A DNA stretch of 64,000 bases from Moniliella sp. 'wahieum' (Eukaryota), in assembly GCA_003971905.1 (NCBI GenBank), contig RSEE01000111.1, positions 62,001-126,000 of the forward strand, given 5' to 3'. The notes beneath the pieces were generated by a model. It was given only the letters and a program-made list of their open reading frames with translations. It did no database searches and had not been told where the DNA came from. Position 1 is the stretch's first letter. Each line of letters opens with the position of its first letter. The translations under genes were made by a program, and so were the position numbers. Positions 19,926 through 51,025 of the stretch are shown piece by piece.

Positions 19926-21163
19926 TTAGGCCGTGCCCAAGAGTTCGGGCGCGGTCTGGTCCTTGACATAAGCCGAGACCGACTCGACCTTATCGCACCA
20001 AGTGGCGAGGCGAGTACGCAGTTCTTCAATCTGCGTTCGGTCCAGGACGCGGGGCTGGACCCAATCCACCTTGACAGTCGCCTGGACCTGGTCCATGGTA
20101 CCGCGAATCAAATGGAGCGAGAGGGCCTTCATCACCAGATGTTCCACCTCGTCGAGCGGCAGGCGCGTCTCGCGCGCAATCGAGCCAAACGTGATTGCCG
20201 CGCGCTGTTCGGGCGAGCGGGCAAAGACAGACTGGATCAAGGCCATCAACACATTTTTGGCGCAAAACGAAACGTTGGCACCTAGGATCGGTTCCGCCGT
20301 TTTGGCAGGGAGTAAAATGGCTTCAAACGCGGCCAAGTCACCGGCATTGTACGCATTGAGCAGTTGCACCAGCAGCGCATGCGGCGTGCCCTCCAGCGCG
20401 GCCACAATCGGGTGCAACAGCAACTCGCCAAAGTTGTAAATCGCATCCGATAGCAACGCAGCCAAGGCCAGGTCGTGCGCACGTTCCACCTTGTCCTCGG
20501 CGGTCAGGTCCGTGTCGAGGTTGACACAGGCAAGGTAGAGCAACGAGTTTTTGTAGTAGGGCGCATACTCCGCCTTGGCTTTGTGGTAGTCGCCTGCGAC
20601 GCGGTAAAACGCACCGTACACGGCCGGGTCTACCGCGTCAAACTGGGCCAGCAGGGCGGCACAGTCGTCCATCGCCTGCTTGGTCGCGGGCAAGTTGCCG
20701 TGGAGCAGTTCGAGATGGGCCGCTTCCATGGCGAGGAGGATGTAGGCCTCGCGTTCTGGAAGGGCGAGTTGACGGCGGCGCGGGCGCCCGCGGAGGCCTG
20801 GTAGCGCGGCTCGCGCTCCTCGTCGGCGTCGGGCGCGGCGGGCTTGACGCAGCGACCTGGGCGGCGAGGAAGGCGCGGGCATCGGCCGGGCGCGGGAACC
20901 GCTTGACGACGCGCACGGCAATCTGGGCGCGGCGGAGCTGGTTGATCTTGCCCTCGAAGCCGGCGACAAAGTGGTGTAGAGGGCGACGGTGCGCGAGGCG
21001 GGTGGCGGCCTCGGGGACTGGAGAAAGTGCTCGAGGGCGAGGGTGAGCTGGTACCAGAGCTTGCGCTCGTACAGGTCGCGCATGGACTCGTACAGCGCCT
21101 GAGCACGTCGGGCGTGCTGGGCGCGACGGCCTGCTCGGCCACGTACGTAGCGGTGGCGTCCAT
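19926..21163 (-). CDS. RPN9: 26S proteasome lid subunit Rpn9 (PSMD13)
   Basis: LYERKLWYQLT, YYKNSLLYLAC, AHDLALAALLSDAIYNFGELLLHPI, EVEHLVMKALSLHLIRGTMDQV..VDWVQPRVLD (PCI domain). Start MDATATYVAEQ at 21163; frameshifts in the 5' third. Confidence 0.93.
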
Positions 21164-22176
21164 GGGGGTGGGGGTGGGGGCGGTGGGGCGGGCGAGGGCG
21201 AAGACGGCGGAGAAGGGGTTATTACGTCCTGCGGCAGGCCACGCGTCGTCCGCACGGGGCGGGGGCGCTGAGGTAATGGCACGTGTCCGGGGCGAGTGAA
21301 ATTGACAGCGGGGCGGAATGGAATGGAGAGTGGTGTACGTAAGCAGCGGAAGGGCGGGCTGGGAGCTGAGACCCAACGGGACGTGTGGCATGCGGGCAGC
21401 GTGTCTTCCCCATGGGCGCGTGCCGGCGTGCAAGGGGGGCCGCGTGGCACAGGGCCAGTGTGCTGCGTGTGTGGGCGGGCCCATGCGCTGCCAGGAGTGC
21501 AGCAGCACACGCGCCGGCGTGGAGCACTGGCACACTCGCCCGCCGCCCACCCTCGCGCAGCGCTCAGCGATCGGCACGCCCGCCGCGGCCACACCGCTGC
21601 CGTGCCGGCGCTGGGCGAGCGAGCGCCACAGCAACCCTAGCGGCGCGGCCGCCAGCGCGTGCTGGCACGCGGCGGGTGTGCGTGCGCACGCGCCAGCACA
21701 GGCGCCGTGCGGCGCTGCGGGCCGGCGGGGGACGGGGCGCGCCAGCTGGGCGGACGCTGCCGCAGTGCCGTCCCCTGCGCCGCGGCGGGCGCCACGCGGC
21801 GAGTGTGGTGGGAAAAGGCAGCCTGGCGCCCAGCGCGTTTCTGCAGCGCTGCGTTTGGGAGGCGACTTTACTTTCTCTCTCTCATCCACCCACACCATCC
21901 ACAGCCACACCCGCGCGCCTGGAGCACACGGCATTCATCCTCACCTCCATCTCCACTTCCACTTCCACGCCACCTCCATCTCCATCTCCATCTCCACCAC
22001 CACCACCACTTCCACCGCCACCCCTCCATCTCATCTCCACCCCCTCCTCCTCCTCTCCTCCACCCCCCATATTTATGGCCCCCACCTAACCCCCATCCAC
22101 CCCCAACCCCAAGTACGTCCCCCCCAGCCCATCGTCGCCCACACCTCCTAACCCCCCCCCACCCCAGTCTTTACCC

Positions 22177-25100
22177 ATGGCCGACCCTTCCGCCCCCCGA
22201 CCGCCAGCAGCGCCTCGCTGCCGCCAAGAAAATCGTGCGTCCCCCCCCCCCCCCCCCCCCCCCCCGCGCTCCTGTCTTCCTGACTCTCCCCCCCCGCAGC
22301 TGCGTGCCCACCGCGCCAAGCACGCCCGCCGCCCCCCACCCCCTCCCCAGCCCCCGCCACGACTCCCCTGCCCCCCCGGCTAGCGTGTCGCCTCCGCTGC
22401 AGGCAGCGCGCGGCACGCCCGTGGCCACTCCCGCACCTCCTCCTCTCCCTTCCCAGCGCACTCTGCTGTCCTCCTGCCCCCGCTCTCCCCCGCCGCCGCC
22501 TCCTCCCGCCGCCTCTCCCGCCCGTCTCCTCCCTCGACCCCCACCCCGCTCCCACTCCCGCTCCGACTCGCGTGGCGTATTGTCAAGCCACTGCCCAGCC
22601 CCCGCCGCAGCAGGATAGACGCGCCATTCCAAGCGCCAGAGCACCAAACTCAATGATGTCTCCCTCTTGTTTGGCGGTGTCCCCACCACCCTTCGACCGA
22701 CTGGCTGGACGACGAGCCTCGTTCCACTCCTCCCGTCGTCCTGGCCCCGGCCCCTGCTGCGCCGCGCCGCGCCCGTCCCACCGTCCGTCCGGCTGTCCCG
22801 CACCATCCCCGTCTCGGCAGCATCTCTGTTTGGTCCGGTGCCCTCCACGCCCGCTACGCCCGCCACGCCCCATTCTCACGACAGCAAGCCCTCCGCCACG
22901 CCTTCGAGCAAGCGCAACAGTCGCCACCTTCGCCATGCTAGTGTGTCGACAAAACGCGACAGTCTCGAGATTATGGCCTCGTCTGGCTCTAGCTTTTACT
23001 CGCCTGCCGACCGGCGTCGATCGGCACGCTTGTCGGGCGCCGTGCCGGCGTCGATGCTGTTTAGCCAGTCGGGGTCGGGGCTGTCGCAGGCCTGGTCCTG
23101 GTCCGCGGAAGAGGAGCCAGAAAGTACGGACGACAGTCGGTTGACCGCGCTGGAAAAGCTCGAAGGCAAAACACGTTCTTCTTCCGAATCCTGCCAGTCG
23201 CGTCCGTCGGCCAGCGACCCACGGCCTCCCTCGTCGCCGTTCCCCTTTGCACTGGAGGAGAGTGCGAGTCGGAACTCGGTGGCGCTTCCGTCGTTTGATG
23301 CGCTTCACGGATCGGAACCGATGGACCAGCGCGTGTCCCGTACGCTGCTGCAAGAGAACGAACACTCGACGCAGCAAGATGCCTTCCCGCTTGGGGTGCA
23401 GGACTTTGACCGTGCAGCTTCCGACACATCCTCTGACGATACCGAGGTGGCCGAGGTAGACACCTCGACGCCGCCGGCAGAATCTGAAGCCGAAGGACTC
23501 AGCACGTTGCTGGAAGAAGAGGAGGAGGAAGACAATTCCTTTGCCCCGACTGAATCATCCGAGGTGATTGAGCATCAACGTGTGCTTCGGCGCAAGAGTC
23601 TGGCGCCCGCACCGCTCAAACTGCAGTCCCGTCCGCTCAGCATGCGATTCCAAGGTGGTCCTCTCCTCCGTTCGGGCGGGACCATGGTGCCGTCAACGTC
23701 GATGCCGGACCTGTCTGGGCGCGGCACCCCGTCCCCGTCCCCTACCCCGGCCCAGAACCAAACCCAGAACCAGAACCAGGGCAAGGACACGAAAGAGGAG
23801 GACGTGGCGACGCCGCGTGCCAAGCGCTTGTCGTTGTTCATGGACGATGTGCCCCAGTTTAAAGAACTTCAGCTGTCCAGTTCCAGTCCCGTGTCTGCCA
23901 CGACCGAGCTCCCAACCAGCGCATCGACGAGCAGCGTCAAGGCCCGTCGTCGCAGTTCCATCATGTACAAGACGGATACGGGTGCGATCGTGCCTGCGCG
24001 TCGGGGCTCGACTGCCCGTCGCGGCTCGGGCAGTTTGTCCTCGATCCTGCTGGACGAGCTACGTGGGAAGGCGGCGCAGGATGCACAAGCGCTCGAGCAA
24101 GCTCGGCAACAACTTGCCGTTGCCCGGCTCGAGTTGGCTGAAACACGCGGCCAGTTGGACCAAGCTTGGTCCGAAGTGCACGAGCAGGAAGATCGGTTCA
24201 AAGCCGTGGAACGCGACTTGCTTGACCGCATCGAGACGCTCACACGTGCGCAACACGAAGCGATGGAAGCCGTAGCTGTGGCGGAGCGCAAGGCCAGTCA
24301 GCTGGCTGACCAACTCGAGTTGGCCGAAGCTGAACGGGACACGTACAGGGACGATGTGGACGGGTGGCGAGAACGGTGTTCGGAGCTGGAGCAGCGTGCC
24401 GAAGTGGAGAAGGCACGTGCAGACCGAGAGACGGAGGCACGCAAAACCGTAATGGGCAAAACGGAGCGACTGATTGCCCAGCTCGTTGCGCTTGACCAGC
24501 CGGTTGCTCCGGAGGACCAGCTGACCCGTGAGGACACTACGGTCCAAAGCGAGACCAAGGTGCACGAGCGTCGTTTCAGTCCTGTTTCTGCTTCGCCCGT
24601 CACGCCTTCGCCCGAGGCGACGGTCAAGTTGCTGTCGGACATGCGGCAGCAAATTTTCAACTTGGCGCGCACGCTGGAGCACGAACGGGAAGAACGGCGT
24701 GCTGTCGATACGCAGTTGGCCGAAACGCGAGCCGAGTTGGCCTCGCTTCGCAGTCCCACCCAAGACGAAGGAGACGACTCGTTTGGCGCAGGGGAAGATG
24801 CGTTTGCGCTTGAAGGGCTGGGCGCACCAGAGATTATGGTGACTGCCTCGCGCACCGGACGTAACCGACACGTGTTTGCCTACGACTCGAGCAACGACAG
24901 TTACTCGCCTCCCAGCACGGTGGCCACCAGCGCACACGACGGATCCGTCTCGATCCTTTCGGACCGTCCGTCGTCGGAGGATGTGTGGAAGACGGGTGGG
25001 TTTGGCGAGATGACGGACGAAGAGGATTTGGGGTTGGGCAACAGCCACCATACTCATGCCTCGCTCGCGCTCGGCCGACGCGACACGCTCCACACGCTCC

Positions 25101-26387
25101 CCGAGGCCGATGAGGAACCGACCGCCGCGACGCCCGTCCTGGACTCGGGGGCGTTCCAGCCGTGTGTTCCTGACCCGGAAGCGCACTTTGACCCGGAAGT
25201 CGATCCCGAGGCCGAGGCCGAGACTGATGCTGCGGCTGAGAACGCTGTCCCGTCCGGTGCCGAGGCAAGCTGGATGACAGACCCCGAGGCGGAGACGACG
25301 CCAGTACCTGTGGACGCGGATCCGGAAGCAGAAGAAGGGTGGGAGGACGAATCGCATTTGATGCCGCGCGAGCTGTTTGGCGGTGCAGCGACGCCCGAGT
25401 TGAGTGTGACGGGTCCGACGTCGAGCCAGACAGAGGGCGACGAGACGCCGACGCCGCTGGAGGAAGAACAAGAGGCGGTGTTTGACTTGGGGCAGGGGTA
25501 CGACGGGTGGGAGACCGAGTCGGACTCGTCCGAGACCAAGGCTAAGGAATTCGATCGCACCTGGTCCTTCTCCAGTGCGTCAAGCAAGACCCAGGAGATT
25601 GCGCGGCAACGCGAGATGGTGGCGCAAGCGCACGGCGGTAAAGTGCCATGCAACTTTACCCCTGGGCCCAAGCTGCCTGGACACGACTTTTTCGGGATCA
25701 ATACCGAGTTGGATATGCCGCCGTTGGCTTCGTCGTTGCCCAGTTTGGACTTGCCTCCTATCCCGCTCACGGGGCTGCCTGTCCGTCACGTTCGTCGCGC
25801 ATCCAAGATGATGCGGGAGAACCTGGACGCGTCGACGAGCAAGATGGTAGCGCGCAACTCGTTGTTGGGCATGACCAGTTCAGCGCTGTACGGTCTAAGT
25901 GGGTACTTTCTCGCTCGGCCCACGTCGATGGTGGGTGCTGTAGCTGGCGCTGCAGCGCATGCGGCGCATTCCTGTGTGGCCAACACACCCCGTTCCAATT
26001 TCACTTCGTCCACTGCACACCAGGCAAGCACGCCAATGCCGATTTACGCAACAGTACCGCCCAATCCTTCTCCAGTGCCTACTCGAACGCTTTGCCCGAC
26101 GGACGCGCCGATGCCGCCCTGCAGACGCTGATCCAGGAACAGGGGGCAACCCGACATGGCAAGCACCTCCTCGCTTGCCCGTCCCGGCTTCTACCCCTGC
26201 GCGACTGACCTTGGCACCGCCCGCACCTGCACCAGCAGGCGCAGGACGGGAGAAACTTGCCCCCCGCCGTCTGGTGCCCAGGGTAGGCGTGACCAACCCC
26301 CCCTCGCTCTTCCCGGCGCCAAGGGATACGCTCGACTTTGGTCCGGCCACCGAGGGCGTAGGTGCCTGGCCGCTCATCTGCATCTAA
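22177..26387 (+). CDS. Large coiled-coil / low-complexity protein with a GM130-like N-terminal motif
   Basis: Exon 1 MADPSAP-DRQQRLAAAKKI, intron 22235(GTGCGT)-22299(CAG), then LRAHRAKH. Open 1154-codon frame 22667-26131 with long E/Q/R/L heptad stretches (~24050-24750). Probable C-terminus TLDFGPATEGVGAWPLICI* at 26387 via a frameshift. Confidence 0.7.
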
Positions 26388-36839: not shown

Positions 36840-38244
36840 ATGCAATGATCAATTGATCTCGGTTGTAGAATGGATAAGCACTTGGTCCAGCCCCTTGCCT
36901 CTCAGTTGGGGGACGAGCATTCCATGTCACCAGCAGCTGTGGCCAAATGAATAGCCGTGGTTGTTTCCCCCTTGGTGCATCCAGCATTGACCCACCCGCA
37001 ACTCCCACATTTGCGAAGACGTAGCCTGTTCCTGTCCATACACGTGTGTAAAAGGTAAGCACCACTGGTGGAGGCTGAACTCGATCGCCTTTGACCACAA
37101 ATGTTGTTGTTCTGGATAGATGACCAATGACATACCGAGGATGGATTGCGCTTGAAAAGTTGAACCCAAAAGTAGATATCTTCTTTGTACCCCGAACGAG
37201 GAAACTCTTGACCCTTGTACCAATCCCTGTACGCTTGAATCTGCTCCCTGGTGAATCGTATGTAAATATCATGAAGGGTACACCAAAGCGAGAAGCAGCG
37301 TAGCATTTCTCCAGACCTTATCGTTGTCGTGCACCCAATATGAGAGGTTGTAGTCTTCATGTTCATAATCCCACGACACTCATGAGAATGGGAATTTAAG
37401 TCAGCCTCAAGTTACTGTTACACAAATATGAATGTACAGTACGCACCGTAATGGTACAAGGGCTGCTTCGCCCTTTTCGAGAACTGAAAAATGACCCATA
37501 TAAGGTACAAATGGCCACCGTCACTCCGAAAACGAGGAGTCGAACGAAGGCTGCTGGTTGACTGCTTCCTTCGTACCCTTGATCAAGAATCGCGTCTTAT
37601 CGTGCTCCACAGTCGAATGTACGCCAACTGGTGACGCTATTACAGGCCAAATATTGGTTAATATTCCTGTGAGATAGTTCGACGGACCAGAGGAAGAGCG
37701 TACTTACCGGCATACCCCCGCTACCACAGGCAAATCAGCAACCATAAGAATGAACGAAGATCCCGGAACAGTGAAGTCGATACGGGGTGCAGCCACTTGG
37801 TCCAAGGACGTCGCTGCGGTGCCCCCTGCGCCACGTATTGCAATCCGGTGAGAACACTCGGTATACCAACGCCAATACTATGTTGATAATGAGAGATCGC
37901 TTGGTCTTGGCATGGTTGGTTGAGTTGGTTGACAGAATGGCCAAAATCTCTCTAAACAAAATCACCTCGGTGCAGGATAACCCGGTTAGAGACCACTGTT
38001 CGATTGGCAACGATATATCGCACCAATCAATGGTCGTGCACGGTCTGAGTGTTACCGCCGATAGCATTTTGACATTGGAATATTTCCAGATGTTGGTCGT
38101 CATGATCGTGCTTGACACAATCGAGTAAAGCAGTACTCGGTACGCATAGATGCCCGCCCTTCTTGAGTTGCACAGGAGGAGAAGACGACCAAACATGCTC
38201 AAGACACCGAGTGTACCTACGATGCCGGAATATGCCGTTACCAT
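36840..38244 (-). CDS. STE3: STE3-type (Pra) mating pheromone receptor, 7TM GPCR; introns plus frameshifts in this assembly
   Basis: STE3 hallmarks in order from ATG 38244: WCDIS; FREILAI..KRSLIINIVL; (shifted) GIPSVLTGLQYVAQGHR-SDVLGPSGCTP; intron 37707(GTAAGT)-37667(CAG); NIWPVI; FVRLLVFGV; probable second intron from ~37445; SWDYEHEDY; FMIFTY(G)FTREQIQAYRDWY. C-terminal end approximate. Confidence 0.88.
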
Positions 38245-38717
38245 GGCTGGTGTTTTGAGGGGGATCGAAAGACTGAGTTGGAAAGAAGAGGTGAAAATGA
38301 TATAAAAGAATGTGGGAGGACCACGTATATATGTACTTCGGGATTACTAAAATACTATAATGCTGCTATATATAGGATCGGACGATCCGGCAAAACGATA
38401 TGGGGAAGATTATCGATACTAACGGTCGGTGTTGTCACGCGTGACTCATTCATTAATCATGCAGAAACACTTTTACTTACACATATTGACGGAAAGACTT
38501 CACTCTTGAGAAGCTTGAAGCTTGAAAGCACACAAAAGGAGGCAAACGCATATATTGCCTTTGGGCCTCTCCCATACAGGCTGCCACAAGGCCGGGTCGC
38601 GTGCACAGAGAAATGAGCGTAGCCGAAGCAACACCCCCCAGAACGGGTTTAGCTGTAACAGTCAGTTTAATCGAAGGAACAATACCGGAAGGGGCGATGG
38701 GTGATACAAAAAAGGAC

Positions 38718-38726
38718 ACAAAGGGA
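38718..38726 (+). promoter_or_regulatory. Pheromone response element ACAAAGGGA (Prf1/HMG-type) in the STE3-pheromone 1 divergent promoter
   Basis: Exact match to the Ustilago maydis PRE consensus; 300 bp upstream of the pheromone ATG. Confidence 0.7.
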
Positions 38727-38766
38727 AAATGCTGCAAAAGGGGGGAGACCAAAAAAGCCGCACCTG

Positions 38767-39500
38767 CCGATACACCGCCTTCCAGCAACATACATAATAT
38801 CGGTACGTCAGCAAAACTGGCGTGTAAAAGGAGCCGCGGGGGTTCCGGCTAAAGAGATAGGAAACAGACGATAGTATACTCTGCTAGGGACAGTGCACTG
38901 CTATTTAAGAACCCATTTTCCACAATGCCGGACGCACATCACCACTACCCTCACCCACTCTTTCTCTCCTCTTCAGCCTCTGCCGTCGCGCATCAGCACA
39001 CCGTATCTTCCATCAAGATGTCTCTTTTCACCATGTTCACCATCCCTACCAACACGATGGCGGCCGAGCCTCTTGGCCCTGACCAGGACCCGAGTATGTA
39101 ACGCAGCTCCGTTTGGTCTGATTCGACCGCCCCAACCGTATGTTGCTAACACTGTGCTGTTTGCACGCCCAGCTGGTTCCATGACTGGCTGTGTCATTGC
39201 CTAGAGGGGCTTTCTGGTAAAGCCCTCCCATGCCGGTCAATCCCCAATCCTCCCTTCACTGCTGTTAGTCAGCTTAGGCATATCAGCAGTTCTCCTTGGC
39301 ATCCCTATAGTTGATGCTGATCTCTGCGCCTGTTTGGCCCGTTGAGATGCTGAGAGGCGTGCACCATGATGTGTTTGTCTTTCAGTCTCTTCTAGCGCGG
39401 CCCCGGTATTTGATCACTCTTCTCTTTTACCTCTTATACCCCCGGACCCCCCCCCCCCCCCCCCCCCACCTATAGGAGAGAGCAGACACTTTGTGTGTTG
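38767..39500 (+). repeat. Pheromone cassette repeat, copy 1 (promoter, gene, 3' region, poly-C)
   Basis: High identity to ~42612-43345 and ~49959-50615; TATTTAAG at 38902; C21 tract at 39447-39467. Confidence 0.92.
39018..39204 (+). CDS. mfa: Lipopeptide mating pheromone precursor, copy 1: MSLFTMFTIPTNTMAAEPLGPDQDPTGSMTGCVIA (35 aa, CAAX = CVIA)
   Basis: Exon 39018-39093, intron 39094-39172 (GTATGT...GCTAAC...CAG), exon 39173-39204. Size, N-terminus and C-terminal CAAX are typical of basidiomycete pheromones; divergent from STE3. Confidence 0.93.
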
Positions 39501-39713
39501 CATTGATCAATGGTCCGTGAGCAACAGAGAGAGGCCTGGAAATATCCCTGTTTCCCAGTAAATATTAAGGAAGAGCGTTTGCACGGAATCGACACACCGA
39601 CTACTAAGGTTTGACCTAACCTCAATATTTAATGCCCTCTTACCCCCTACTGTGGCGTCACCCCCTAGAGAGGCGTTGTCAGCGCATCTCTCCCTGCCCG
39701 CCTTTCTTGTCCA

Positions 39714-39769
39714 AGTCCTGGCCGTTTAGTCCTGGCCGTTTAGTCCTGGCCGTTTAGTCCTGGCCATTT
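39714..39769. repeat. 14-bp tandem repeat (agtcctggccgttt) x4
   Basis: Seen directly. Confidence 0.9.
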
Positions 39770-39789
39770 CCAGCCAATTGATTGAATAA

Positions 39790-40745
39790 TACATGCAACC
39801 TCTCTCGTCTCTCCACTTAGCTGCCTCCTCTTCATCATCCAGCCTCTCGTCCTCCAGAGAGTTCCATGCGCCCAGTGGCGCGAGCCTTCCTTCAGCCGGT
39901 CAATTCCCGGGCCGTACCACAGCATATCGCGTGGGTTCCTTTCCAGCCACGTCGACAGCCGCCCCTGGACAGCCTCAGCTCTGGCAGTGTTTGTTCTCCA
40001 CTGACTCTACCCGTCCCTAAGTCCCAGAGGCTTCAGACACGTTACTATACGGCCCAAGCCGGTGCATAGGCAGCCTTGCCACACGTGCAGCCGCCTCAGC
40101 TTCATACTCAAAGGCTTCTCCTCGTCCCTAGCTCCACTCGGATCCACCAAGTAGCCCAATCCCGAAACTTCCTCGAGTCGTCTTTCTGTCACCTAAGGAA
40201 TTGTACCCCCAAAACGTGGGCGATCCCCTTGGCGGGTCCCGCCTGTGACAGGGTCGGCGTAATTCGCGTTGAATGGATCGAGCCCACCGCATCCTCGGTA
40301 CCACCTATCAGCCCTGATGCATTTTTCTCCACATCTCCGCCTTGCTGTACGACTCCGCCTGTTGTGCCACGGATACTCTTTTCACCACTGCTCCCCTTTG
40401 ATCCAGTAGTAAAGTCCCCATAGGATGGAAGGCATTATATAACACACTCATCCACCTATCGAGCGTAAACGCTAGGTCATTGGAGGATTATCCGAACGGA
40501 GCTAGGGCCAGGGCAGAGACGCGTCGGGTGGTGATCGGTCTTGCAAAATAAGCATTGTGGGCACAGTCGGCAGTCTTGTGGCCAGGGCGACGGCATGGCG
40601 GCACAACGCTGGTCGTGGATTGAAGGTACACTACACCGTGTGCGAGTGTGGTCGTTGGTGCGGCAATGAGGGCACCGCCAACAGTGAGCACGGTAGGGGG
40701 CATTTTAAGGTAGTGGACGGGCGCGTCGACGCGACCCTGTGTCAT
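39790..40745 (-). pseudogene. Decayed CCHC zinc-knuckle gene, copy A
   Basis: Reverse-complement similarity to 41065-41600. ATG 40745 (MTQGRVDAP..); knuckle remnant CRRPGHKTADC. Confidence 0.7.
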
Positions 40746-40759
40746 ACACAGCGGATTTC

Positions 40760-40900
40760 AAAAAGAGGTAAAAATATCAGCGATGTTCGGGAGCTGACAT
40801 CGGCGACGTGTTTGCATGGTTTTGAGGAAAATGATGTCAGCGACATCGAAAAAGAGGTCGTTGATATCAGCGACGGCGCAAAAGAGGTCGTTGATGTCAA
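40760..40900. repeat. ~30-bp degenerate tandem repeat (aaaagaggtcgttgatatcagcgac)
   Basis: Several imperfect units in the spacer between the head-to-head zinc-knuckle copies A and B. Confidence 0.75.
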
Positions 40901-40904
40901 TGAA

Positions 40905-40943
40905 GTAGCGTCCCCCTGTCCCAGCCTTAAGCTCTGTCAATGA
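40905..40943 (-). repeat. 54-bp motif, copy 2 (partial, 39 bp)
   Basis: Reverse complement reads TCATTGACAGAGCTTAAGGCTGGGACAGGGGGACGCTAC. Confidence 0.85.
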
Positions 40944-41064
40944 AATGGACATGGTCTAGAGATCTTTTATTACCATACGCGAGGGAGGTGCAAGAAATCC
41001 GCCAACAACCCTACTGCCCCCCCCCACCTGCACGTGACGGGGGGCTGCGCCAACGATCGGGCAT

Positions 41065-42097
41065 ATGACAGAGTCGCGTCGACGCGTCCCTCCACTCCCT
41101 TAAAATGCCCCCTACCCGTACTCACCGCCGGTGCCCCCATTGCGGCACCAACGACCACACTCACGCACAGTGTTCCTTCAATCCACGCCGAGAGTTGTGC
41201 TGCCACTGCCGTCGCCATGGCCACAAGGCTGCCGACTGCGGTAGTTTCGGGTTTGGGCTATTTGATGGATCCGAGCCGAGGAGAAGCCTTTGGGCGTGAA
41301 GCCGAGGCGTCCGCACGCGCGGAAAGGCTGTGTATGCGCCGGATTGGGGGTAGTAACGTAACTGAAGCCTACGGAGCTTAGGGACGGGTAGATGCTGTGG
41401 AGGAAAGAGACTGTCAGGGCTGAAGCTGGGCGGGAGCTGTGCACGTAGCTGTGAAAGGAACCCACGCGATATGCTGTGGTATGCGGAACCGACCCCGCTG
41501 AAGGAAGGCTCGCGCGACTGAGCAGATGGAGAGCTGGAGGACGAGGTTGGATAGTGAAGATGAGACAGCTAAGTGGAGACGATAGGTTGCCTGCATTACT
41601 CAATCAGTTGGCCGGAACCGTCAGGAGTTGGACAAGAAAGGTGGGAAGGGACGAGAATGGAAGGTGGGATAAAGGATCCCCACTGATTGAGGATGCTGAC
41701 TGTTGGCTGACCCTGTTTTGGTAACCCCCTCCTGTCTAAGCCTCACCGCACTGGCATATAGATGTTGACAGAGCGAAGCAGACGAAGCTGCTACAGAGTG
41801 CCACTTGGGAGCACTCATCGCGATCCTATGGATCAGCTGCAACGCAGCCTTCAGACAAGGCGTGAAGGCAATGTTCAAGCAACATCTGAATTGAAGGAAA
41901 GGAGACAGGAGAGAGAGAAGGGAGATGAAGCGAGCAGGGCGCGCGCGCCCTGCGAGCGGAACTCTTCCGCCCGGGTAAGTGAGCGTCACCGATCCACCGA
42001 GAGGGCCGTGCAAGGGAACCCCAGCACTACCCTCCAACAGAAGCAAGCGAAGACTGCGAAGGCACTAAGAATGTCATCCGATAGCACTTCCTCGTAA
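41065..42097 (+). pseudogene. CCHC zinc-knuckle gene, copy B (most complete), interrupted by stops and frameshifts
   Basis: Starts MTESRRRVPP. Two perfect C-x2-C-x4-H-x4-C knuckles, CPHCGTNDHTHAQC and CCHCRRHGHKAADC (in ORF 41105-41299). Ends MSSDSTSS*. Confidence 0.78.
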
Positions 42098-42230
42098 ATG
42101 ATAATGTCTTTTCGTGATCCGCTGTGTAATATGCCCGATCGTTGGCGTAGCCAGCCTCACCTACCCGTCACGTGCAGGTCGGCGAGCAATAGGGTTGTGG
42201 CGGATTCTTGTTCACCCTCTCTGATATAGA

Positions 42231-42284
42231 GGTTCGGTTTAGACGTAGCGTTCCCCCTGTCCCAGCCTTAAGCTCTGGCAATGA
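42231..42284 (-). repeat. 54-bp motif, copy 3
   Basis: Reverse complement reads TCATTGCCAGAGCTTAAGGCTGGGACAGGGGGAACGCTACGTCTAAACCGAACC. Confidence 0.9.
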
Positions 42285-42394
42285 TATGGATTCGAAAGTA
42301 GTAGAGATCGCAGTAACCTCTCTTCAAGCTGCAAGCAGTTGGCTTCATTGACCCTGTGTGAAACATAGGTCAGGTGGAACAGCGAGCAATGTAC

Positions 42395-42403
42395 ACAAAG
42401 GGA
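42395..42403 (+). promoter_or_regulatory. Pheromone response element ACAAAGGGA upstream of pheromone copy 2
   Basis: Exact match to the PRE consensus. Confidence 0.65.
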
Positions 42404-42865
42404 ATTATTTTTCGACCCAACAGCAGCCACAACAGTCATATTGAAGGAAGTATACTATGTAGCTGAAAACCTTGGATTGGCGTATGAAAATATGGCTCAA
42501 GACCTTCACTGCCAGTGGGGGTGAACGAGATTCGCTCCACCCACCCCGAACAGAGAGGGCGGACCTTCCGAAAGAGATTTGGAACTTCCGAAAGAGGGAG
42601 AGTCGACTTGCCGATACACCCTGCGTTCCAGCAACGTGGACATCGGTACGTCACAGCAAACCTGGCGTGTAAAAGGAGCCGCGGGGGTTCCGGCTCAAGA
42701 TAGGAAACAGAGGATAGTATACTCTGCTATTAGGGACAGTGCACTGCTATTTAAGAACTCATTTTCCGCAATGCCGGACGCACATCACCACTACCCTCAC
42801 CCACCTCTTGTCTCTCCTCTTCAGCCTCTGCCGACGCGCATCAGCACACCTTAACTTCCATCAAG

Positions 42866-43054
42866 ATGTCTCTTTTCACCATGTTCACCATCCCTACCAA
42901 CACGATGGCGGCCGAGCCTATTGGCCCTGACCAGGACCCGAGTATGTAACGCAGCTCCGTTTGGTCTGATTCGACTGCCCCCCGACCGTATGTTGCTAAC
43001 ACTGTGCTGTTTGCACGCCCAGCTGGTTCCATGACTGGCTGTGTCATTGCCTAG
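42866..43054 (+). CDS. mfa: Pheromone precursor, copy 2: MSLFTMFTIPTNTMAAEPIGPDQDPTGSMTGCVIA
   Basis: Exons 42866-42941 and 43023-43054; 81-nt GT-AG intron with a GCTAAC branch site; intact CAAX and stop. Confidence 0.93.
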
Positions 43055-43340
43055 AGGGGCTTTCTGGTAAGCCCTCCCCATGCCGGTCAATCCCCAATCC
43101 TCTCTTCACTGCTGTTAGTCAGCTTAGGCATATCAGCAGTTCTTCTTGGCATCCCTACGGTTGATGCTGATCTCTGCGCCTGTTTGGCCCGCTGAGATGC
43201 TGAGAGGCGTGCACCATGATGTGTTTGTCTTCAGTCTCTTCTAGCGCGGCCCAGGTTTTGATCACTTCTCTTTTACCTCATATATTGGACCCCCCCCCCC
43301 CCCCCCCCCCCCACCTATAGGAGAAAGCAGACAGTTGGTG

Positions 43341-43511
43341 TGTTGTTATAGACCCGAGAGAAGGTAGTTGGTACTAGTGTATTGCATTAGTTGCACATGA
43401 GCTACAGAGGATAGAGAATATTCCTGCCCGCCAGGAAGGAATATTGCATGGAACCAACCAGAAGGTTCCGGACTTGGGCTACCGCCGCCACTACACCAGT
43501 GTGGCGTCACA
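43341..43511 (-). repeat. Possible 3' LTR of the copia element
   Basis: TG...CA-bounded ~170-bp segment just beyond the RNase H stop, next to a short purine run (GGAGA) on the minus strand. Weak similarity to 39496-39661 (shared tgtggcgtcac). No matching 5' LTR found. Confidence 0.3.
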
Positions 43512-43547
43512 TCTCCACAAGCCCAAGGACGGTACCGACGGTTTTCC

Positions 43548-46500
43548 TCAAGCGCTCGAGCTCTTCAATCCCCACCAAAACCTATAGGCACCGGAGTGTC
43601 CAGGTGGGGGGAGATCAGGAATAGGACCCAATTCGCGGTCACGCAGCGGCTCCAGGGCCATGTATGCCCGGCTCTTGCTGTGGAGGTCGGAGACGTTGTC
43701 CACACCTTTTAAGGACACAGGAGTAACAATCCCTGCTCGGTTGCTCTCACGTATATAGGTGTAGGAGCGGGCAACGTGGCGCGTCCCTTTGGCAGAACCC
43801 CAATTATTCGCGCAGGCGACTGCTGCCACGGATGAGTCGCGCCGAAGCGCGAAAGGAATACCTGCGGGAAAAGCACCAAGCTCCGCTAACAGTTCACGCA
43901 GCGCCATAGCATAAGCCACACCCTCACTCGCTGCCACATACTCCGAGTCGCCCGTGCTGCGTCCCACCACGCGCTGCTTGGCCGAGCGCCAGCCAACCAA
44001 GGCTCCAAAAACGTAGACTGCCAGGCCAGAGGTGGCCTTGCTGCCCCACCTTTCGTTCTTGTAGCTACTGTCGGTAAAAAGTTCCAGCGGTGGGCCAAGG
44101 GTAGGGTGGAGTCGGAGCGCTAGACCAGCATTGTGACCCAGATAGCCCCCTACCCCGGCCAAAGCCGTCCAGTGTTGGGGACCAGGGTCAGCGCAGAATT
44201 GTCCAAGGGAGCGCACAGCAAAAGCAATGTCCGGCGGGTGCAGGACGCGATCCATCCTAGTGTTCCCACTTCACTGGCGAAGCGATGTGTCTCCTCCTCC
44301 GGACACTGTCGCTCGCCTTCAGCGCGGGGGACAAGCTGAGTCCCCGTAGGAAGGGCTGACGATAAGGTGGCTCGCCCTCACGTCCAAATCTTCACGTGCT
44401 CGCCTTAATATAGTCCTCCTGAGAGACATGGCACTCTCCAGGTCGGAAGCGAAACGCACACTCAGAAAGTATGCTAACGGACCGCCGTCCTTGACATCCA
44501 CATGTTGGCGTAGGTCCCATAAGAAGTTGTAGTATGCCTCAGCAGATGAGGCAGCGACGCAAGGATCATCCACCATATACAGAGGATGATCACTTCTTCA
44601 CCGCGTACACGGGTAAATACGCACGGGTCGGCGATAGTGGAGGTGCAGCCGATGAGTTGGAGCAACCCGGTAAGTTTCTCATACCATCTCCGCGAGCTCT
44701 GCTTCAGGCCATACGGGGCTTTCTTGAGTAGCCACACCTTACCATCTTCCCCGCCGAAGCCCTTTGGCGGTTCCATGCACACGTATATTCGCTTGGCTGG
44801 ATGTCGGCATAAAAGAAAGCGAACACCACATCGCAAGTGAAAACGGGTCAGTCATGACGCAGAGCAAGAACGATAACGGTTAGCAGTGCCATGAAGCGTA
44901 CAGTGGCGGAAGATTACGTAGTAGCTGGATCATAGTCAAGGCCCGGGCGTTGAAGGAAGCCCTGGCCTACCCACCGGGCGCGCCGCCGAACTAGTCAACC
45001 GGCCTCGGTTTTGTAATGGCAGACAAAGCGAACCCTCGACACCATGGCATCACTCCCTTTCGCCGTCACTCCCTTTCGCCGTCACTCCCTTTCGCCGGCC
45101 GCTGCACGCTCTCCCAAACCCCCCCGGTCTTCCAGATTCTTCACCTCATCCCCGAAAGCCTGCTCCCACTCGCTTGCATCCGCACCTCGTCGGGCTTCAT
45201 ACTCATTGCGGGGATCCACCAACAGAGGAGGGACATCCCCACCATTGTCCCCACCATTGTCCCCACCATTGCCCCCACCACTTCCCACTGTGGTCACAGC
45301 CGCGGCAATGGGATGGGACGGTTGATATGCTTCGTCCCTAGTTTTGCCCTGATAGGGCCCAAAAGTTTGGACCAAACTGATTGCGCAAATCAGCCTGTAG
45401 GGCCGCCTGCCGTCTCGGGCGTTCATTGTGGTCCGGTACCGCAGCATTCGGCGCGGTTGGCTCCAACTCCGCAATCGTGGCTGATGGAATCAACGTGCGC
45501 CTGGGGCACAGGTCCAGGTAGTTGGTGTCATCACCCCATCGTAACATATCCCTCACCCAGGTGAACCGCCACTGCGATACTTCCCACTCGCCCACTAGCC
45601 ACTTGCTTTGGCCCACGTCGTATCCAAGCGAGGAGCACCACGGGACGACAAGCGATTCTCCCGATCCTCTTCGTTCACGAGCGCATGGGCCACTGCACCA
45701 AAGCGATGAAGGTACGCTGGCGCAGCTGGTTTCTCCAGGTAACGCGTGGCAGGATTCGGAGGGCCAAGCTTGCCGATACTCATGTTGTGTATATATGCTG
45801 CGGCCTCAATGGCGAGCGGCCAAAGGTCCACATTCATCCGCCATGCCCGCATCTTGCAGTAGGGCTCGCGTAGTCGTGACAAGTTCTTGTTGGACACGCT
45901 CCACTTTGCCATTGCTGGCGCTAGCATTACACACCGTCTGGATGTGGCGAATCCCCATTTCAGAAAAGAAGGAAGCAAGAAGAAGCAAACTCAGTACCTT
46001 GGTCCGAATGGACGACAGATACCCTGTACCCCTTGTGCTGGAAACGTCGCTCCTCTTGGACGATGTGATTCCGGAGGAAGTAGCAACCTTGTCCTTTCCC
46101 GCCGCAGGATAAACGGAGCAGTACCTGGTGTGATCGTCCAAGATCATGAGCATGACAGTGGCGCCAAAAGCGTCTGACAGGGGGAACGTTGTCATCACGT
46201 CAACATGTAGCTTGTAGAGCGGTTGAGGGGAAGTCACGGGTTCGGCTACCCGATGGTGGGGAGCGTGGCGAGCTTTCTCGGTGGCACACACGGTACAGAA
46301 CCATTTGCTTTCCGCGCGGCGGACAACTGCGGCCGGTACCTCACAACTGTGTCCTTTGGAGGATTCAACCAGGCGGCCGAGTCCTATATGCCCTAAGCTC
46401 CTATGAGCGTCCATAACGCGCTCAAGATCGCCCTTCGAGGGTGTGGCCCGTGCAGAAGACGCGCTTGCTGTCGCCACGATTGGCGTCGGGGCCAACACGT

Positions 46501-47476
46501 GTGGCTGGGCTAAAAAAGTGGGAGTCGAGCACGACCTTGGCTGGCGGCGGCGTGTGCTGGTGTAAGTTGCGCATCGCCGCCCTGGGCGCGTCAGGTTCCC
46601 ACGGCAGGCCGACATCGCTCCGGGCGGCCGTGGTAGGTGGTGGAGTCTAAAGTGGGGCTGCTTGGGCTGCGCTGACCGGACTGGTTTCAAGGTTTCACAC
46701 AGGTCGACGTGCAACCAGTTGCACGCGCGGCCGGCAATCAACGTCACTAGTCACTAGTCACTAGTCACTGCTATGCCTGAAGTTGCCTCGCCAAGTGATC
46801 ATCGATCACTCGACAGAAGCGGGTCTACCAACCCTTCCACTAGACGGCACTCTGGCATGTAAAGGGATACAACTTCAAGCTTCATCGTTTACGCGTTAGG
46901 CCTTAGGGCGCGTACCCAGACGCGAACATCACCGATGTGGTTGCACAGCACAAGTTCACCATTTGCCAGCTCCGCCTTTTCCCGCGTCAGTGGGCCGCAC
47001 GTTCACCACCGGCCATCCGAGTCATTACGCAGAAGTGTCCATGGATCCTGAGAGATGCGTGCCTGCTTGAAATAGCCTCAGATTGTAGACGCCAACAGGG
47101 GGCCAGAAAGGCTGTCTTTCAGGGCCCGGTGAGGGGACGTGAGCCCGTCCCTGTCCAACATGTTCTCAACAGGACTAACTGCCCCCTCAAAATCAGCCTG
47201 GTAATTGTACCCACAGTCTCAGAGCTTGCCTTTTCCAAACAGGAGGATACTTGTCTTGATTTTCCTATCCAATATTCGCTCGACAGATCCAAACAAGTCT
47301 TGAACATACGACGACCAGGGACCATAAGATGTGGCCTTGGCTGTGAGCTTGGGAAGACTTGACCAGCCACCGCTGCGATTCACAGCAGTTTCAACCGCGG
47401 CGTTGAACGTAGGAAGCGAATCTTGGGATACGACCGTAGACAAAGGTGTCACGACGCTGGGGTTGAACGTTGACAA
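43548..47476 (-). mobile_element. Degenerate Ty1/copia LTR retrotransposon (gag fragment, integrase, RT, RNase H)
   Basis: Gag-like LPKLTAKATSYGPWSSYVQDLF. Pre-integrase HRSLGH..CTVC. Integrase LHVDV..ILDDHTRY..NGKVER. RT WVGQGFLQRPGLDY, MEPPKGF..LKKAPYGLKQSSRRW, ADPCVF and VDD. RNase H PDIAFAV..FTDSSY..WRSAKQRVVGRSTGDSEYVA. The IN-RT-RH order defines copia; no protease recognised. Confidence 0.93.
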
Positions 47477-47570
47477 CTTACACGCGTGATTACCTGATGC
47501 ACCTGCAGTGCTCCCACTCAGTTGTGTTTTTGTTCATGTCAGGTTCTCTCTAAGTTGCGTCCACTGCATA

Positions 47571-47624
47571 TCATTGACAGAGCTTAAGGCTGGGACAGGG
47601 GAGTCGCTACGTCTAAACCGAACC
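47571..47624 (+). repeat. 54-bp motif, copy 4
   Basis: TCATTGACAGAGCTTAAGGCTGGGACAGGGGAGTCGCTACGTCTAAACCGAACC, ~95 bp upstream of the copia gag-like ORF. Confidence 0.9.
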
Positions 47625-47637
47625 TGTGAAACATATA

Positions 47638-48506
47638 GAACGAGGAAGTGCTATCCGATGATATACTCTTAGTGCCTTCGCAGCCTCCACTTGCTTCTGT
47701 TGGAGGGTAGTGAGCTTCACGGGCCCTCAGTGGATCGGTGACGCTCGCTTAACCGGTTGAAAGAGTTCCGCTCGCAGGCCGCGCACGCCTTGCTCGCTCC
47801 ATCTCCCTTCTCTCTCTCCTGTCTCCATCCCTTCAGACGGTGCTTGATTCCTTCATGCCTTGTCTGAAGGCCGCTTTGCAGCTGATCCATAGGATAAGTC
47901 GCACTCTAGCAGTTTCGTCTGCTTCGCTCTGTCACCATCTATATGCCACTGCGATGTGGCTTAGACAGGAAGGGGTTACCAAAAAGGAGTCAATCAATAG
48001 TCAGCATCCTCGATCAATGGGAATCCTTTATCCCACCTTCCATTCTCGTCCCTTCCCGCCTTTCCTGTCGAACTCCTGACTGTTTCCAGCCAATTGATTG
48101 AGTAATACAGGAAACCTTTCGTCTCCACTTAGCTCCTTGCCAAGCGTGCGGCCGCTTCGGCTTCACGGCCAAAGGCTATCCAGCAAATAGCCAAAGCCCG
48201 AAACTACCGTGAGTCGTTCTGCACGTAAGGGATTGTACCCCACCAGCCTGGGTGAGCCTCCTGGCAGGGCCTCCCTGTACGCCTGTGACAGGGTTATCAT
48301 CGTAATTCACGTTTCATGGATCGGGCCTACCACCTCTTCCATCCCCTCCCTTGGCCACCGAGTCCCTTTGGGTTATCCCCCCCCCTCTCAATTGCTCTCC
48401 ACATCTCCTCCTTGCTCTATCACTCCTCCTTGCCAGGGTTACTCTTTGCACCACCGCTCCCCTTGTAAGGTATGGGAGAGGGGACGCGTCGACGCGACTC
48501 TGTCAT
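47638..48506 (-). pseudogene. Zinc-knuckle gene family, copy C (knuckles deleted)
   Basis: ATG 48506 gives MTESRRRVP; the 3' half matches the reverse complement of ~41570-42095. Confidence 0.7.
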
Positions 48507-48521
48507 ATGCCCGATCATTAA

Positions 48522-49413
48522 TCACGAGGAAGTGCTATCGGATGACATCATTTTTTGTCCCTTCGCAGCCTCCGTTTGCATCTGTTGGGGTGGTAGTGTT
48601 AGGCCTCCCCTGCACCCCTCAGTGAATCGGTGACGCTCTTGCTTAGCCGGTCGAAAGAGTTCCGAAAGAGTTCCGCTCGCAGGGCCCGCGCGCCCTGCTC
48701 GCTCCATCTCCCTTCTCTCTCTCCTGCCTTCTTTCCTTCAGATGCTTGTAGACTTGTGGTCACCCCTTTGCCTTCACGCCTGCAGTGTCTGAAGGCTGCT
48801 TTGCAGCTCATTGGTAGGATCTTGAGTGCTCCCAAGTCGCACTCTATAGCAGCTTCGTCTGCTTCGCTCTGTCAACATCTACGTATACGCAGCCTTGCCA
48901 CGCGTGCAGCCGCCTCGGCTTCACACCCAAAGGCTTCTCCTAGCTCGGATAGCCCAGGCTCAAAACTACCGTGAGCCGTCTTTCACGTAAGGGACTGTAC
49001 CCCACCAACCTGAGTGAGCCCCCTGGCAGGGCCCGCCTGCGACAGGGTCGTCGTAATTCACGGTACATGGATCGAGCCCGCCACCTCTGGATCATCGATC
49101 ATCCTTACTCCATCCTTCCACCAATCCACTTTGTCCTCCCCTCTCTTCTTGTCCTCCCCCCTCTTCTTGTCCTTCCCCCCCCACCTTATTTTTGTCGCAA
49201 AGACCCCAATTGCTTTCCACATCTCCTCCTTGCTCCACCGCCCCGCGGCAGTCTTTAGCCAGGTCGACGGCCGTGGGGGCACAAACGTGGGAGTGGATTG
49301 AAGGGGCACCGTGTGCCAGTGTGGTCGTTGGTGCCGCAATGGGGGCTCCGACGGTGAGTACGGGTAGGGGCATTTGAAGTGGGTGGAGGGACGCGTCGAC
49401 GCGACTCTGTCTT
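48522..49413 (-). pseudogene. Zinc-knuckle gene family, copy D (ATG changed to AAG), head-to-tail with copy C and divergent from pheromone copy 3
   Basis: KTESRRRVPPPTSNAPTRTHRRSPHCGTNDHTGTRCPFNP...; ends MMSSDSTSS* at 48522. Confidence 0.72.
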
Positions 49414-49737
49414 ATGCCCGATCGTTGGTTGGCGCAGCCAGTCCCACCCACCCGTCACGTGGTCCGCGGGCAGTAGGGTTGCACATTTCTTTTGCCTGCT
49501 CGAACATGGAACTAAGAGATTGGCGTAGCCAGCCCCGCGGAGCAGTAGGGTTGCACATCAGGGAGCAGTAGGGTTGCACACTTTCTTTGCACCCTCGCAT
49601 ATGGAAAGTAACCGGTAACCGGTAACCTCTCTTCAAGTTTCAAGCTTCATTAAGCTTCAAGCTTCAAGCTTCAAGCTTCATTGGCTTCATTAAACCCTGT
49701 GTGAAACATAGGTCAGGTGGAACAGCGAGCAATGTAC

Positions 49738-49746
49738 ACAAAGGGA
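49738..49746 (+). promoter_or_regulatory. Pheromone response element ACAAAGGGA upstream of pheromone copy 3
   Basis: Exact match to the PRE consensus. Confidence 0.65.
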
Positions 49747-50217
49747 ATTATTTTTCGACCCAACAGCAGCCAACAGTCATATTGAAGGAAGTATATGTAG
49801 CTGAAAACCTTGGATTGGCGTATGAAAATATGGCTCAAGGCCTTCACTGCCAGTGGGGGTGAACGCGGTGAACGAGATTCGCTCCACCCACCCCGAACAG
49901 AAAGGGCGGACCTTCCGAAAGAGATTTGGAACTTCCGAAAGAGGGAGAGTCGACTTGCCGATACACCCTGCGTTCCAGCAACGTGGACATCGGTACGTCA
50001 CAGCAAACCTGGCGTGTAAAAGGAGCCGCGGGGGTTCCGGCTCAAGAGATAGGAACAGAGGATAGTATACTCTGCTATTAGGGACAGTGCACTGCTATTT
50101 AAGAACTCATTTTCCACAATGCCGGACGCACATCACCACTACCCTCACCCACTCTTGTCTCTCCTCTTCAGCCTCTGCCGACGCGCATCATCACACCTTA
50201 CCTTAACTTCCATCAAG

Positions 50218-50406
50218 ATGTCTCTTTTCACCATGTTCACCATCCCTACCAACACGATGGCGGCCGAGCCTATTGGCCCTGACCAGGACCCGAGTATGTA
50301 ACGCAGCTCCGTTTGGTCTGATTCGACTGCCCCCCGACCGTATGTTACTAACACTGTGCTGTTTGCACGCCCAGCTGGTTCCATGACTGGCTGTGTCATT
50401 GCCTAG
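50218..50406 (+). CDS. mfa: Pheromone precursor, copy 3: MSLFTMFTIPTNTMAAEPIGPDQDPTGSMTGCVIA
   Basis: Exons 50218-50293 and 50375-50406; 81-nt intron with a canonical TACTAAC branch point; intact CAAX. Confidence 0.93.
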
Positions 50407-51025
50407 AGGGGCTTTCTGGTAAAGCCCTCCCAATGCCACGGCAGGTCAATCCCCAATCCTCCTTCACTGCTGTTAGTCAGCTTAGGCATATCAGCAGTTC
50501 TCTCTTGGCATCCCTATAGTTGATGCTCATGTCTGCGCCTGTTTGGCCCGCTGAGATGCTGAGAGGCATGCACCATGATGTGTTTGTCTTTCAGTCTCTT
50601 CTAGCGCGGCCCTGGTACTTCATCTATCCATTTCCTCATCCCTTTTCCTTTGTTTCTGCGCGTTGCTACAGTGAGGGTGATCCAATGGAGGGTGTTTGCG
50701 ATAGTTATAGACGGGGTGAGGATTGTGATGCAGGGGTGGATGCGCTGTTGGTGTGCGATTGAGAGTCGGCGGTTGGCATTGCGAGTTGAGATGTTCGGTC
50801 TGAGAGAAAAAGGCGATGGTGGTGTTTTGAGCTGGCAAAGGCGCACTGCCATGTGGCACGCTGCCGGCGTCGGCACACGCGTGTGGCCTGCTGACGTAAG
50901 GGGTGGACGCGTGCGGGTGTTGGCTGTGCTGGTCTGCCTGGGACGCGCCACGCATTTCGCCATCGCCATCGCCACCGCCATCGCCACCGACTTCACCATC
51001 GTCTCTGCCATCCCCGCCGGGTTCC

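Follow-up and report, generated by a model that had tools for sequence, protein, structure and literature searches.

A candidate pheromone/receptor mating-type locus with three paralogous, intron-split genes for one predicted lipopeptide pheromone

The window analysed here, a stretch of 64,000 nucleotides (nt) of contig RSEE01000111.1 (assembly GCA_003971905.1, Moniliella sp. 'wahieum'; positions 62,001 to 126,000 of the forward strand), carries three short, near-identical, intron-split candidate genes for a lipopeptide pheromone precursor, numbered copies 1 to 3 from left to right, and, beside copy 1, the first exon of a candidate STE3-type pheromone receptor gene (Table 1). Direct reading gave in each copy an exon 1 of 76 nt, running from ATGTCTCTTTTC to GACCCGA, and an exon 2 of 32 nt, running from CTGGTTCC to TGTGTCATTGCCTAG, separated by a phase-1 intron that begins with GTATGT and ends with CAG, and whose branch site, about 25 nt before the intron end, reads GCTAAC except in copy 3, where it reads TACTAAC. 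With the predicted intron removed, each copy yields a product of 35 amino acids, inside the range of roughly 30-60 amino acids of basidiomycete lipopeptide (a-factor-type) precursors, which terminates in ...DQDPTGSMTGC-VIA followed by a stop. The CAAX box CVIA, with Cys fourth from the C-terminus, is thus present in all three copies, and the last 16 residues are identical among them; the sole coding difference revealed by the alignment lies at codon 19, where copy 1 has CTT (Leu) and the other two copies have ATT (Ile). Left unspliced, the exon-1 frame meets a stop after 27 codons and contains no CAAX box. The sequence-only reading that preceded this analysis had described three intron-split genes beginning at 39018, 42866 and 50218, with 35-residue precursors differing only at residue 19 (L/I) and with GACCCGA joined to CTGGTTCC across an intron of 79-81 nt; the genes and their exon ends were found on direct reading just as it described them, and the alignment confirmed the single difference.

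The composite pattern GTATGT-N30-60-CTAAC-N10-30-CAG matched at the three genes and nowhere else in the window, with 0.08 matches expected from shuffles, and the three matches count as one independent event because the genes are copies of one another. A Pfam scan of one unspliced open reading frame (ORF) containing exon 2 (38875-39201) returned no match, the ORFs of copies 2 and 3 falling below the cut-off of 100 amino acids and hence outside that scan. A TATA-like box, TATTTAA, is found at 38902-38908 in copy 1 and stands about 110 nt before the pheromone ATG in the repeat unit. Another ATG, located about 15 nt after the TATA-like box (38925, 42771 and 50119), shares the pheromone reading frame in two of the copies, 1 and 3, and falls out of it in the other; it probably either lies outside the transcript or starts a short upstream ORF. 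The 5' leader differs among the copies by insertions and deletions (indels) that are not multiples of three and, since the upstream ATG is moreover in frame in only two of the three copies, the leader was read as non-coding and the 35-residue frame as the conserved one.

A perfect copy of the element ACAAAGGGA, which we take to be the Prf1 pheromone-response element of Ustilago maydis, was found upstream of each of the three genes, always on the sense strand. These are the only perfect matches in the 64 kb, where 0.31 were expected, and 2 of 100 shuffles reached three. The presumed identity is matched in Kellner et al. (2011, PMC3248468), where the legend to Fig. 3 gives ACAAAGGGA as the pheromone-response element of Ustilaginales a loci. 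Because the copy 1 site falls outside the block of homology shared by the copies, whereas the sites of copies 2 and 3 reside in sequence duplicated between them, the three sites represent two independent occurrences. An element with one mismatch, ACAAAAGGA, was also observed in the receptor/pheromone intergenic region at 38532-38540 (+), 186 nt from the perfect site.

The receptor exon and copy 1 are transcribed away from each other, their ATGs standing 773 bp apart. In the Pfam scan, the ORF at 37738-38343 (-) matched STE3 with an E-value of 1.3e-6 and 28.3 bits, the curated cut-off being 29.2. A phmmer search of this ORF against 1.84 billion representatives gave two matches, one of which, the 184-residue protein P0122, shares 32% identity with it (E 2.5e-14) and, by its own Pfam match, is clearly the N-terminal part of an STE3 protein (70.7 bits, E 1.6e-19). 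The identity of the receptor is therefore bridged by P0122, and a tblastn search of the window with P0122 recovered this receptor locus only (E 4e-19). The other phmmer match, P0121, is a 729-residue repetitive protein with eight weak matching stretches and was set aside as uninformative. In word-index searches of longer proteins, no matches were obtained with the receptor ORF, and P0122 returned only two weak Trametes STE3 matches (E 9e-5 and 6.5e-4). An Atlas search with the receptor ORF, taken as a lead only, returned fungal seven-transmembrane clusters at 0.91-0.92 and an STE3 cluster at rank 17 (0.88). Within the exon, a conserved stretch around ...LQYVAQG is in one frame and the ...HRSDV...GC that follows it in another, and the longest frame has a stop before a GTAAGT donor.

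Comparison of the copies by blastn of the window against itself and by MAFFT alignment showed that the repeat unit common to all three, comprising the promoter, the leader, the gene and a conserved 3' flank, spans about 650-740 bp at 92-95% identity, and that copies 2 and 3 share about 960 bp at 94.6% identity. Pairwise identities over the shared unit, with gaps counted, are 92.4% for copies 1 and 2, 91.6% for copies 1 and 3, and 93.8% for copies 2 and 3, which makes the last two the closest pair, in agreement with their common Ile. When only substitutions were counted, a measure preferred because the window carries indel errors (see below), the coding sequence had 1 variable column out of 108, the intron 3 out of 81, the 5' flank 18 out of 270 and the 3' flank 19 out of 221. 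Hence the coding sequence (1/108) varies less than the flanks and intron together (40/572; Fisher one-sided p = 0.006), the corresponding counts with indel columns included being 1/108 and 73/572. This pattern fits purifying selection on each copy, and gene conversion confined to a short tract across the gene would leave much the same picture. The copies look like true paralogues, given their 6-8% divergence and different flanks, and most likely arose by segmental duplication in a repeat-rich, gene-poor stretch.

Several other repeat features accompany the units. In copies 1 and 2, but not in copy 3, the conserved 3' flank gives way to a run of about 20 C residues (at about 39440-39470 and about 43290-43310), which marks the end of homology between units. 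Around the pheromone units there is a mosaic of degenerate repeats in both orientations (39768-42095 and 47640-49481), including a near-palindrome at 39768-41617 and inverted arms of about 530 bp (41567-42095 and 47640-48134, 83% identity) that bracket copy 2 and a copia fragment. These degenerate repeats may have mediated the duplications.

Table 1. Positions of the pheromone genes, the receptor exon, response elements, repeat units and other features identified in the window
Feature	Positions	Strand	Details	Basis
Pheromone precursor, copy 1	39018-39204	+	Exon 1 39018-39093; intron 39094-39172 (79 nt); exon 2 39173-39204 including TAG stop	Direct reading, alignment, intron pattern
Pheromone precursor, copy 2	42866-43054	+	Exon 1 42866-42941; intron 42942-43022 (81 nt); exon 2 43023-43054	Direct reading, alignment, intron pattern
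Pheromone precursor, copy 3	50218-50406	+	Exon 1 50218-50293; intron 50294-50374 (81 nt, TACTAAC branch site); exon 2 50375-50406	Direct reading, alignment, intron pattern
STE3-type pheromone receptor gene, first exon (candidate)	37708-38244	-	ATG at 38244	Pfam, phmmer, frameshift-aware alignment
Perfect pheromone-response element ACAAAGGGA	38718-38726	+	300 nt upstream of copy 1 ATG; receptor/pheromone intergenic region, outside the shared homology block	
Perfect pheromone-response element ACAAAGGGA	42395-42403	+	471 nt upstream of copy 2 ATG	
Perfect pheromone-response element ACAAAGGGA	49738-49746	+	480 nt upstream of copy 3 ATG, in sequence duplicated with copy 2	
Repeat unit 1	38762-39415 (or to 39500)	+	Promoter with TATTTAA, 5' leader, gene, about 210 nt of conserved 3' flank	blastn self-comparison, alignment
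Repeat unit 2	42322-43345	+	42606-43345 common to unit 1; 42322-43256 common to unit 3	blastn self-comparison, alignment
Repeat unit 3	49662-50624	+	49953-50624 common to all three units; 49662-50616 common to unit 2	blastn self-comparison, alignment
MDM31/32	4794-7779	-		Pfam scan
AAA ATPase (AFG2/SPATA5-like)	8760-10103	-		Pfam scan
Transportin-3/importin-13-like gene	13022-14375	+		Pfam scan
RPN9	19929-21218	-		Pfam scan
Copia-type reverse transcriptase fragment	44477-44851	-	Between copies 2 and 3	Pfam RVT_2, E 1.8e-9

The affinities of the organism were examined with the RPN9 gene, whose ORF matched 1518 proteins at E 1e-20 or better. The top match has 71% identity, and the best matches from named species, with 45-51% identity, all belong to Ustilaginomycotina (Tilletiaria anomala, Tilletia, Malassezia, Pseudozyma flocculosa, Testicularia, Thecaphora and others). 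No named species is close, the best of these matches standing at 49%. In a quick maximum-likelihood tree (LG+G4, with support from the Shimodaira-Hasegawa-like approximate likelihood ratio test, SH-aLRT) built from the window sequence and 34 of 120 listed hits, the window grouped with its closest relative, P0001 (support 100), then with Tilletiaria anomala (95), inside an Ustilaginomycotina clade of 16 rows (98). This is a tree of one gene, with a long branch and an unusual composition of the window row; one row labelled as outgroup grouped with Rhizoctonia, so that the outgroup did not form one clade, and the placement of the window was unaffected. The organism is probably a member of the Ustilaginomycotina near Georgefischeriales, a placement next to Tilletiaria that bears out the smut-like context previously suspected.

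The remaining genes were sought by a Pfam scan of 306 stop-to-stop ORFs in three sets: 90 ORFs of 170 amino acids or more in 1-36 kb; 69 ORFs comprising those of 100 amino acids or more in 35.5-57 kb and one of 260 amino acids at 61.6-62.4 kb; and 147 of 175 listed ORFs, the rest being 17 that precede 39370, 10 within repeat unit 2 and one covered by another set. The recognisable housekeeping genes are listed in Table 1. From 36 kb rightwards the G+C content falls from 0.60-0.70 to 0.49-0.60, and the pheromone genes are situated at the edge of a gene-poor stretch: apart from the copia RVT_2 fragment, none of the ORFs scanned beyond copy 1 (39-64 kb) reached a curated Pfam cut-off. Right of 36 kb, matches to CDC45 (E 0.0095) and zf-ChsH2 (E 0.007) were under the cut-off and were taken as chance. 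Mutation of the kind caused by repeat-induced point mutation (RIP) was considered as an explanation for the reduced G+C at 36-50 kb and rejected, the dinucleotide indices being without its signature. No second CAAX-ended pheromone-like candidate was detected in 26-64 kb by a scan of single ORFs, which a different intron-split gene could escape. Likewise, lga2, rga2 and the usual border genes were not recognised among the 306 ORFs, these being genes without strong Pfam models in frames that are error-ridden. In the G+C-rich part, an open frame of 1170 codons at 22619-26128 (+) without any Pfam match was also observed; it may be spurious in such DNA or encode a low-complexity protein.

The quality of the sequence bears directly on how the locus is read. 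Compared with P0001, RPN9 shows four single-base deletions (about 21095, 20970, 20848 and 20753) in 1.2 kb and, once these are bridged, 347 of 412 residues are identical. A locally garbled stretch around 20250, about 100 codons before the end of RPN9, stays in frame. The AFG2/SPATA5-like ATPase changes frame at about 9829, where two overlapping ORFs continue each other's match to solved Afg2/SPATA5 chains, and this change is not an intron because there is no room for one. Since the genes broken are conserved housekeeping genes, the one-base deletions point to sequencing or assembly error. The assembly behind the window thus seems to retain indel errors that were left uncorrected, and for that reason gene models here need frameshift-tolerant methods.

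Taken together, these results favour a pheromone/receptor (a-type) mating-type locus of the Ustilaginomycotina branch next to Tilletiaria, with three paralogous genes for one predicted farnesylated lipopeptide and an STE3/Pra-type receptor, a reading to which a probability of roughly 0.78 was assigned on the basis of sequence comparison. The earlier proposal that these are pheromone genes is backed by the divergent STE3-type exon, by the perfect response element of each copy and by the coding conservation. Nevertheless, a number of observations weigh against this reading. The Pfam STE3 score of the receptor (28.3 bits) is under the curated cut-off of 29.2; its exon requires three frame changes (about 37882, 37824 and 37750) in the frameshift-aware alignment with P0122; and its C-terminal half was not detected, with no STE3 match from Pfam at E up to 10 on 11 ORF pieces. 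A frameshift-aware alignment of the downstream sequence to two Trametes receptors was equally negative, its score of 37 falling inside the 29-50 obtained with 16 shuffles. All three introns, and two of the three response elements, trace back to duplication and hence are not independent. The window also shows no excess of response elements with one mismatch (14 observed where 11.65 were expected). Moreover, the small indel differences between the copies, including the intron lengths of 79 and 81 nt, are partly unreliable because of the 1-nt indel errors in the window. If the frame breaks of the receptor are real, the locus may be decaying. The genes could then be relics of a lineage or mating type that has lost pheromone signalling, the receptor being a true pseudogene and the pheromone copies intact only through their shortness. 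The three frame changes, the stop before the GTAAGT donor in the longest frame and the lack of STE3 similarity downstream of the exon would fit such a history, as would the gene-poor, repeat-rich surroundings, in which the 147 ORFs of the third set yielded only the sub-cut-off zf-ChsH2 match and those of the second set beyond copy 1 only the RVT_2 fragment and the sub-cut-off CDC45 match. However, similar frameshifts occur in RPN9 and in the AFG2-like ATPase, which are not expected to be dead, so that sequence error would cover the receptor too; none of the three coding sequences is broken, they vary less than the sequence around them, and the response elements are perfect. Loss of signalling is accordingly regarded as unlikely. 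Indeed, the receptor had first been read as a pseudogene from its three frame changes and early stop, an interpretation that was dropped when the same breaks were seen in the two housekeeping genes, which make the receptor frameshifts unusable as evidence of decay; sequence error would explain them. A variant in which the breaks are real, and a haplotype of this lineage near Tilletiaria combines a tripled, still-selected pheromone gene with a decaying linked receptor in a 'sender-only' or transitional state, is quite improbable; if true, it might represent, for example, a step toward asexuality or a rewired compatibility system, and the Prf1-type response element would be shown to be older than the Ustilaginales.

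Three further explanations concern the copies themselves. An error-prone assembly might have written one real gene three times, through mis-assembly or uncollapsed haplotypes. However, identity over the shared unit reaches only 92-94%, and substitutions separate the copies in 41 columns. Their homology ends at different points, and their flanks differ: copy 1 adjoins the receptor, copy 2 is followed by the copia fragment and copy 3 by unique sequence. All three lie within 11.4 kb of one contig, and an artefact of this kind is very unlikely. It is just as hard to believe that there are no genes here at all, and that a dispersed repeat happens to carry a short ORF, intron-like signals and a CAAX-like ending. 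The units do sit among other degenerate repeats, and chance readily produces CAAX-like endings, of which the window has 49 in its six frames, but it fails to account for a perfect 5' splice site, branch site and 3' splice site occurring jointly with a CVIA frame that closes only after splicing, to which are added the TATA-like box, perfect response elements at non-homologous positions, the adjoining receptor gene and a coding sequence conserved above its flanks. Finally, the Leu/Ile difference at residue 19 might be thought to give the copies different specificities, as at the a loci of Sporisorium reilianum. Yet the last 16 residues are the same in all three, and residue 19 lies 13 residues before the Cys, most likely within the part of the pro-region predicted to be removed, which leaves this possibility barely credible. 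The sequence-only reading had likewise argued against the two-specificity arrangement of S. reilianum, a view upheld by the identical C-terminal peptides and by the single-ORF scan of 26-64 kb, in which no other CAAX-ended pheromone-like ORF was seen.

Under the favoured explanation, a mating-type locus with three genes for one pheromone, a series of steps can be proposed on the established model of a-factor-type pheromones. Transcription from the response elements would depend on a Prf1-type HMG-box factor, and splicing of the phase-1 intron would join the N-terminal pro-region to the C-terminal part. The Cys would then be farnesylated, VIA cleaved off and the Cys carboxymethylated; the final Ala of a CAAX box directs farnesyltransferase. 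After trimming of the N-terminal pro-region, a Ste6-type transporter would carry the peptide out of the cell, where the receptor of a compatible mating type would detect it. Going by the pheromones of U. maydis, which have 9 and 13 residues, residue 19 would be removed during this processing, so that Leu or Ile would be absent from the mature peptide and the three genes would give one product. With one predicted product from all three copies, redundancy or dosage is their most likely role, as has been suggested for Cryptococcus, and not a pair of specificities. Dosage with purifying selection and concerted evolution would both fit the likeness of the copies.

A text search of the literature did not find the peptide string GSMTGCVIA, nor did it find the control MTLCVIA, part of the Cryptococcus string quoted in the sequence-only reading; since papers show pheromone sequences in figures, this negative has no bearing on novelty. 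The combination of features in this lineage was not found in print either, within a search to which sequences inside figures are invisible. The locus adds a pheromone/receptor system from an under-sampled branch of the smut subphylum, suggests use of the ACAAAGGGA response element beyond the Ustilaginales, and provides a further, probably independent, case of the multiplication of one lipopeptide pheromone gene, as in Cryptococcus. It leaves the current understanding of basidiomycete mating unchanged. In practical terms, pheromone hunts based on ORFs would overlook these genes, whose CAAX box is created by splicing, and the authors of a preprint on pheromone finding in yeasts state the same splicing limit for their own method (10.1101/2021.09.28.462209).

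The locus resembles the a locus of Ustilago maydis and other Ustilaginales (mfa and pra genes with Prf1 elements), which belong to the same subphylum, in that a short CAAX precursor gene adjoins an STE3-type receptor gene and perfect ACAAAGGGA elements stand upstream of the genes, the copy 1 site here being shared with the receptor intergenic region. It differs in gene structure and in number. The mfa genes of U. maydis are not known to have an intron, whereas the pheromone genes described here are intron-split, and Ustilaginales loci with two mfa genes encode two different pheromones, in contrast to the three genes with one identical C-terminal peptide found in this window. In the account of Ustilaginales given by Kellner et al. 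(2011, PMC3248468), a locus has at most two pheromone (mfa) genes. Outside the Ustilaginales but within the Ustilaginomycotina, Exobasidium vaccinii also has more than one precursor gene at the locus: in the survey of 16 genomes by Kijpornyongpan and Aime (2020, PMC7766764), its mating-type (MAT) a locus is described as having a duplicated pheromone precursor and receptor, read as increasing compatibility. There the receptor is duplicated as well, whereas in the window the pheromone gene alone occurs in several copies, all with one predicted product. Divergent pheromone/receptor pairs are described in Puccinia, 500-700 bp apart and likened to smut a2 loci (PMC5295586).

The multiplication itself finds a parallel in the MFalpha and MFa genes of Cryptococcus, where, as predicted here, several copies encode an identical mature pheromone, a likeness in arrangement and not in descent. 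The sequence-only reading also quoted a CVIA ending for C. neoformans MFalpha. Cryptococcus belongs to a different subphylum, and its pheromone copies lie in a large MAT locus together with STE20, STE11, STE12 and other genes, none of which was seen in the window. According to Passer et al. (2022, PMC9296135), multiple identical MFalpha or MFa genes per mating type occur in all Cryptococcus species examined and are thought to raise pheromone output. Intron-interrupted genes for farnesylated pheromones likewise have counterparts, although these belong to ascomycetes, in which the pheromone genes form no cluster next to the receptor; the comparison is not meant to suggest that the introns share an origin. 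Schizosaccharomyces pombe has three M-factor genes for one identical mature peptide. Its mfm1-3 genes and YlMFA4 of Yarrowia lipolytica are among the genes for which an intron is described in the preprint of Srikant et al. (bioRxiv 10.1101/2021.09.28.462209). Every element of the locus thus has a precedent, from the smut a locus to the multiplied genes of Cryptococcus and S. pombe, and the whole is probably an ordinary mating-type locus from a poorly sampled smut-related lineage.

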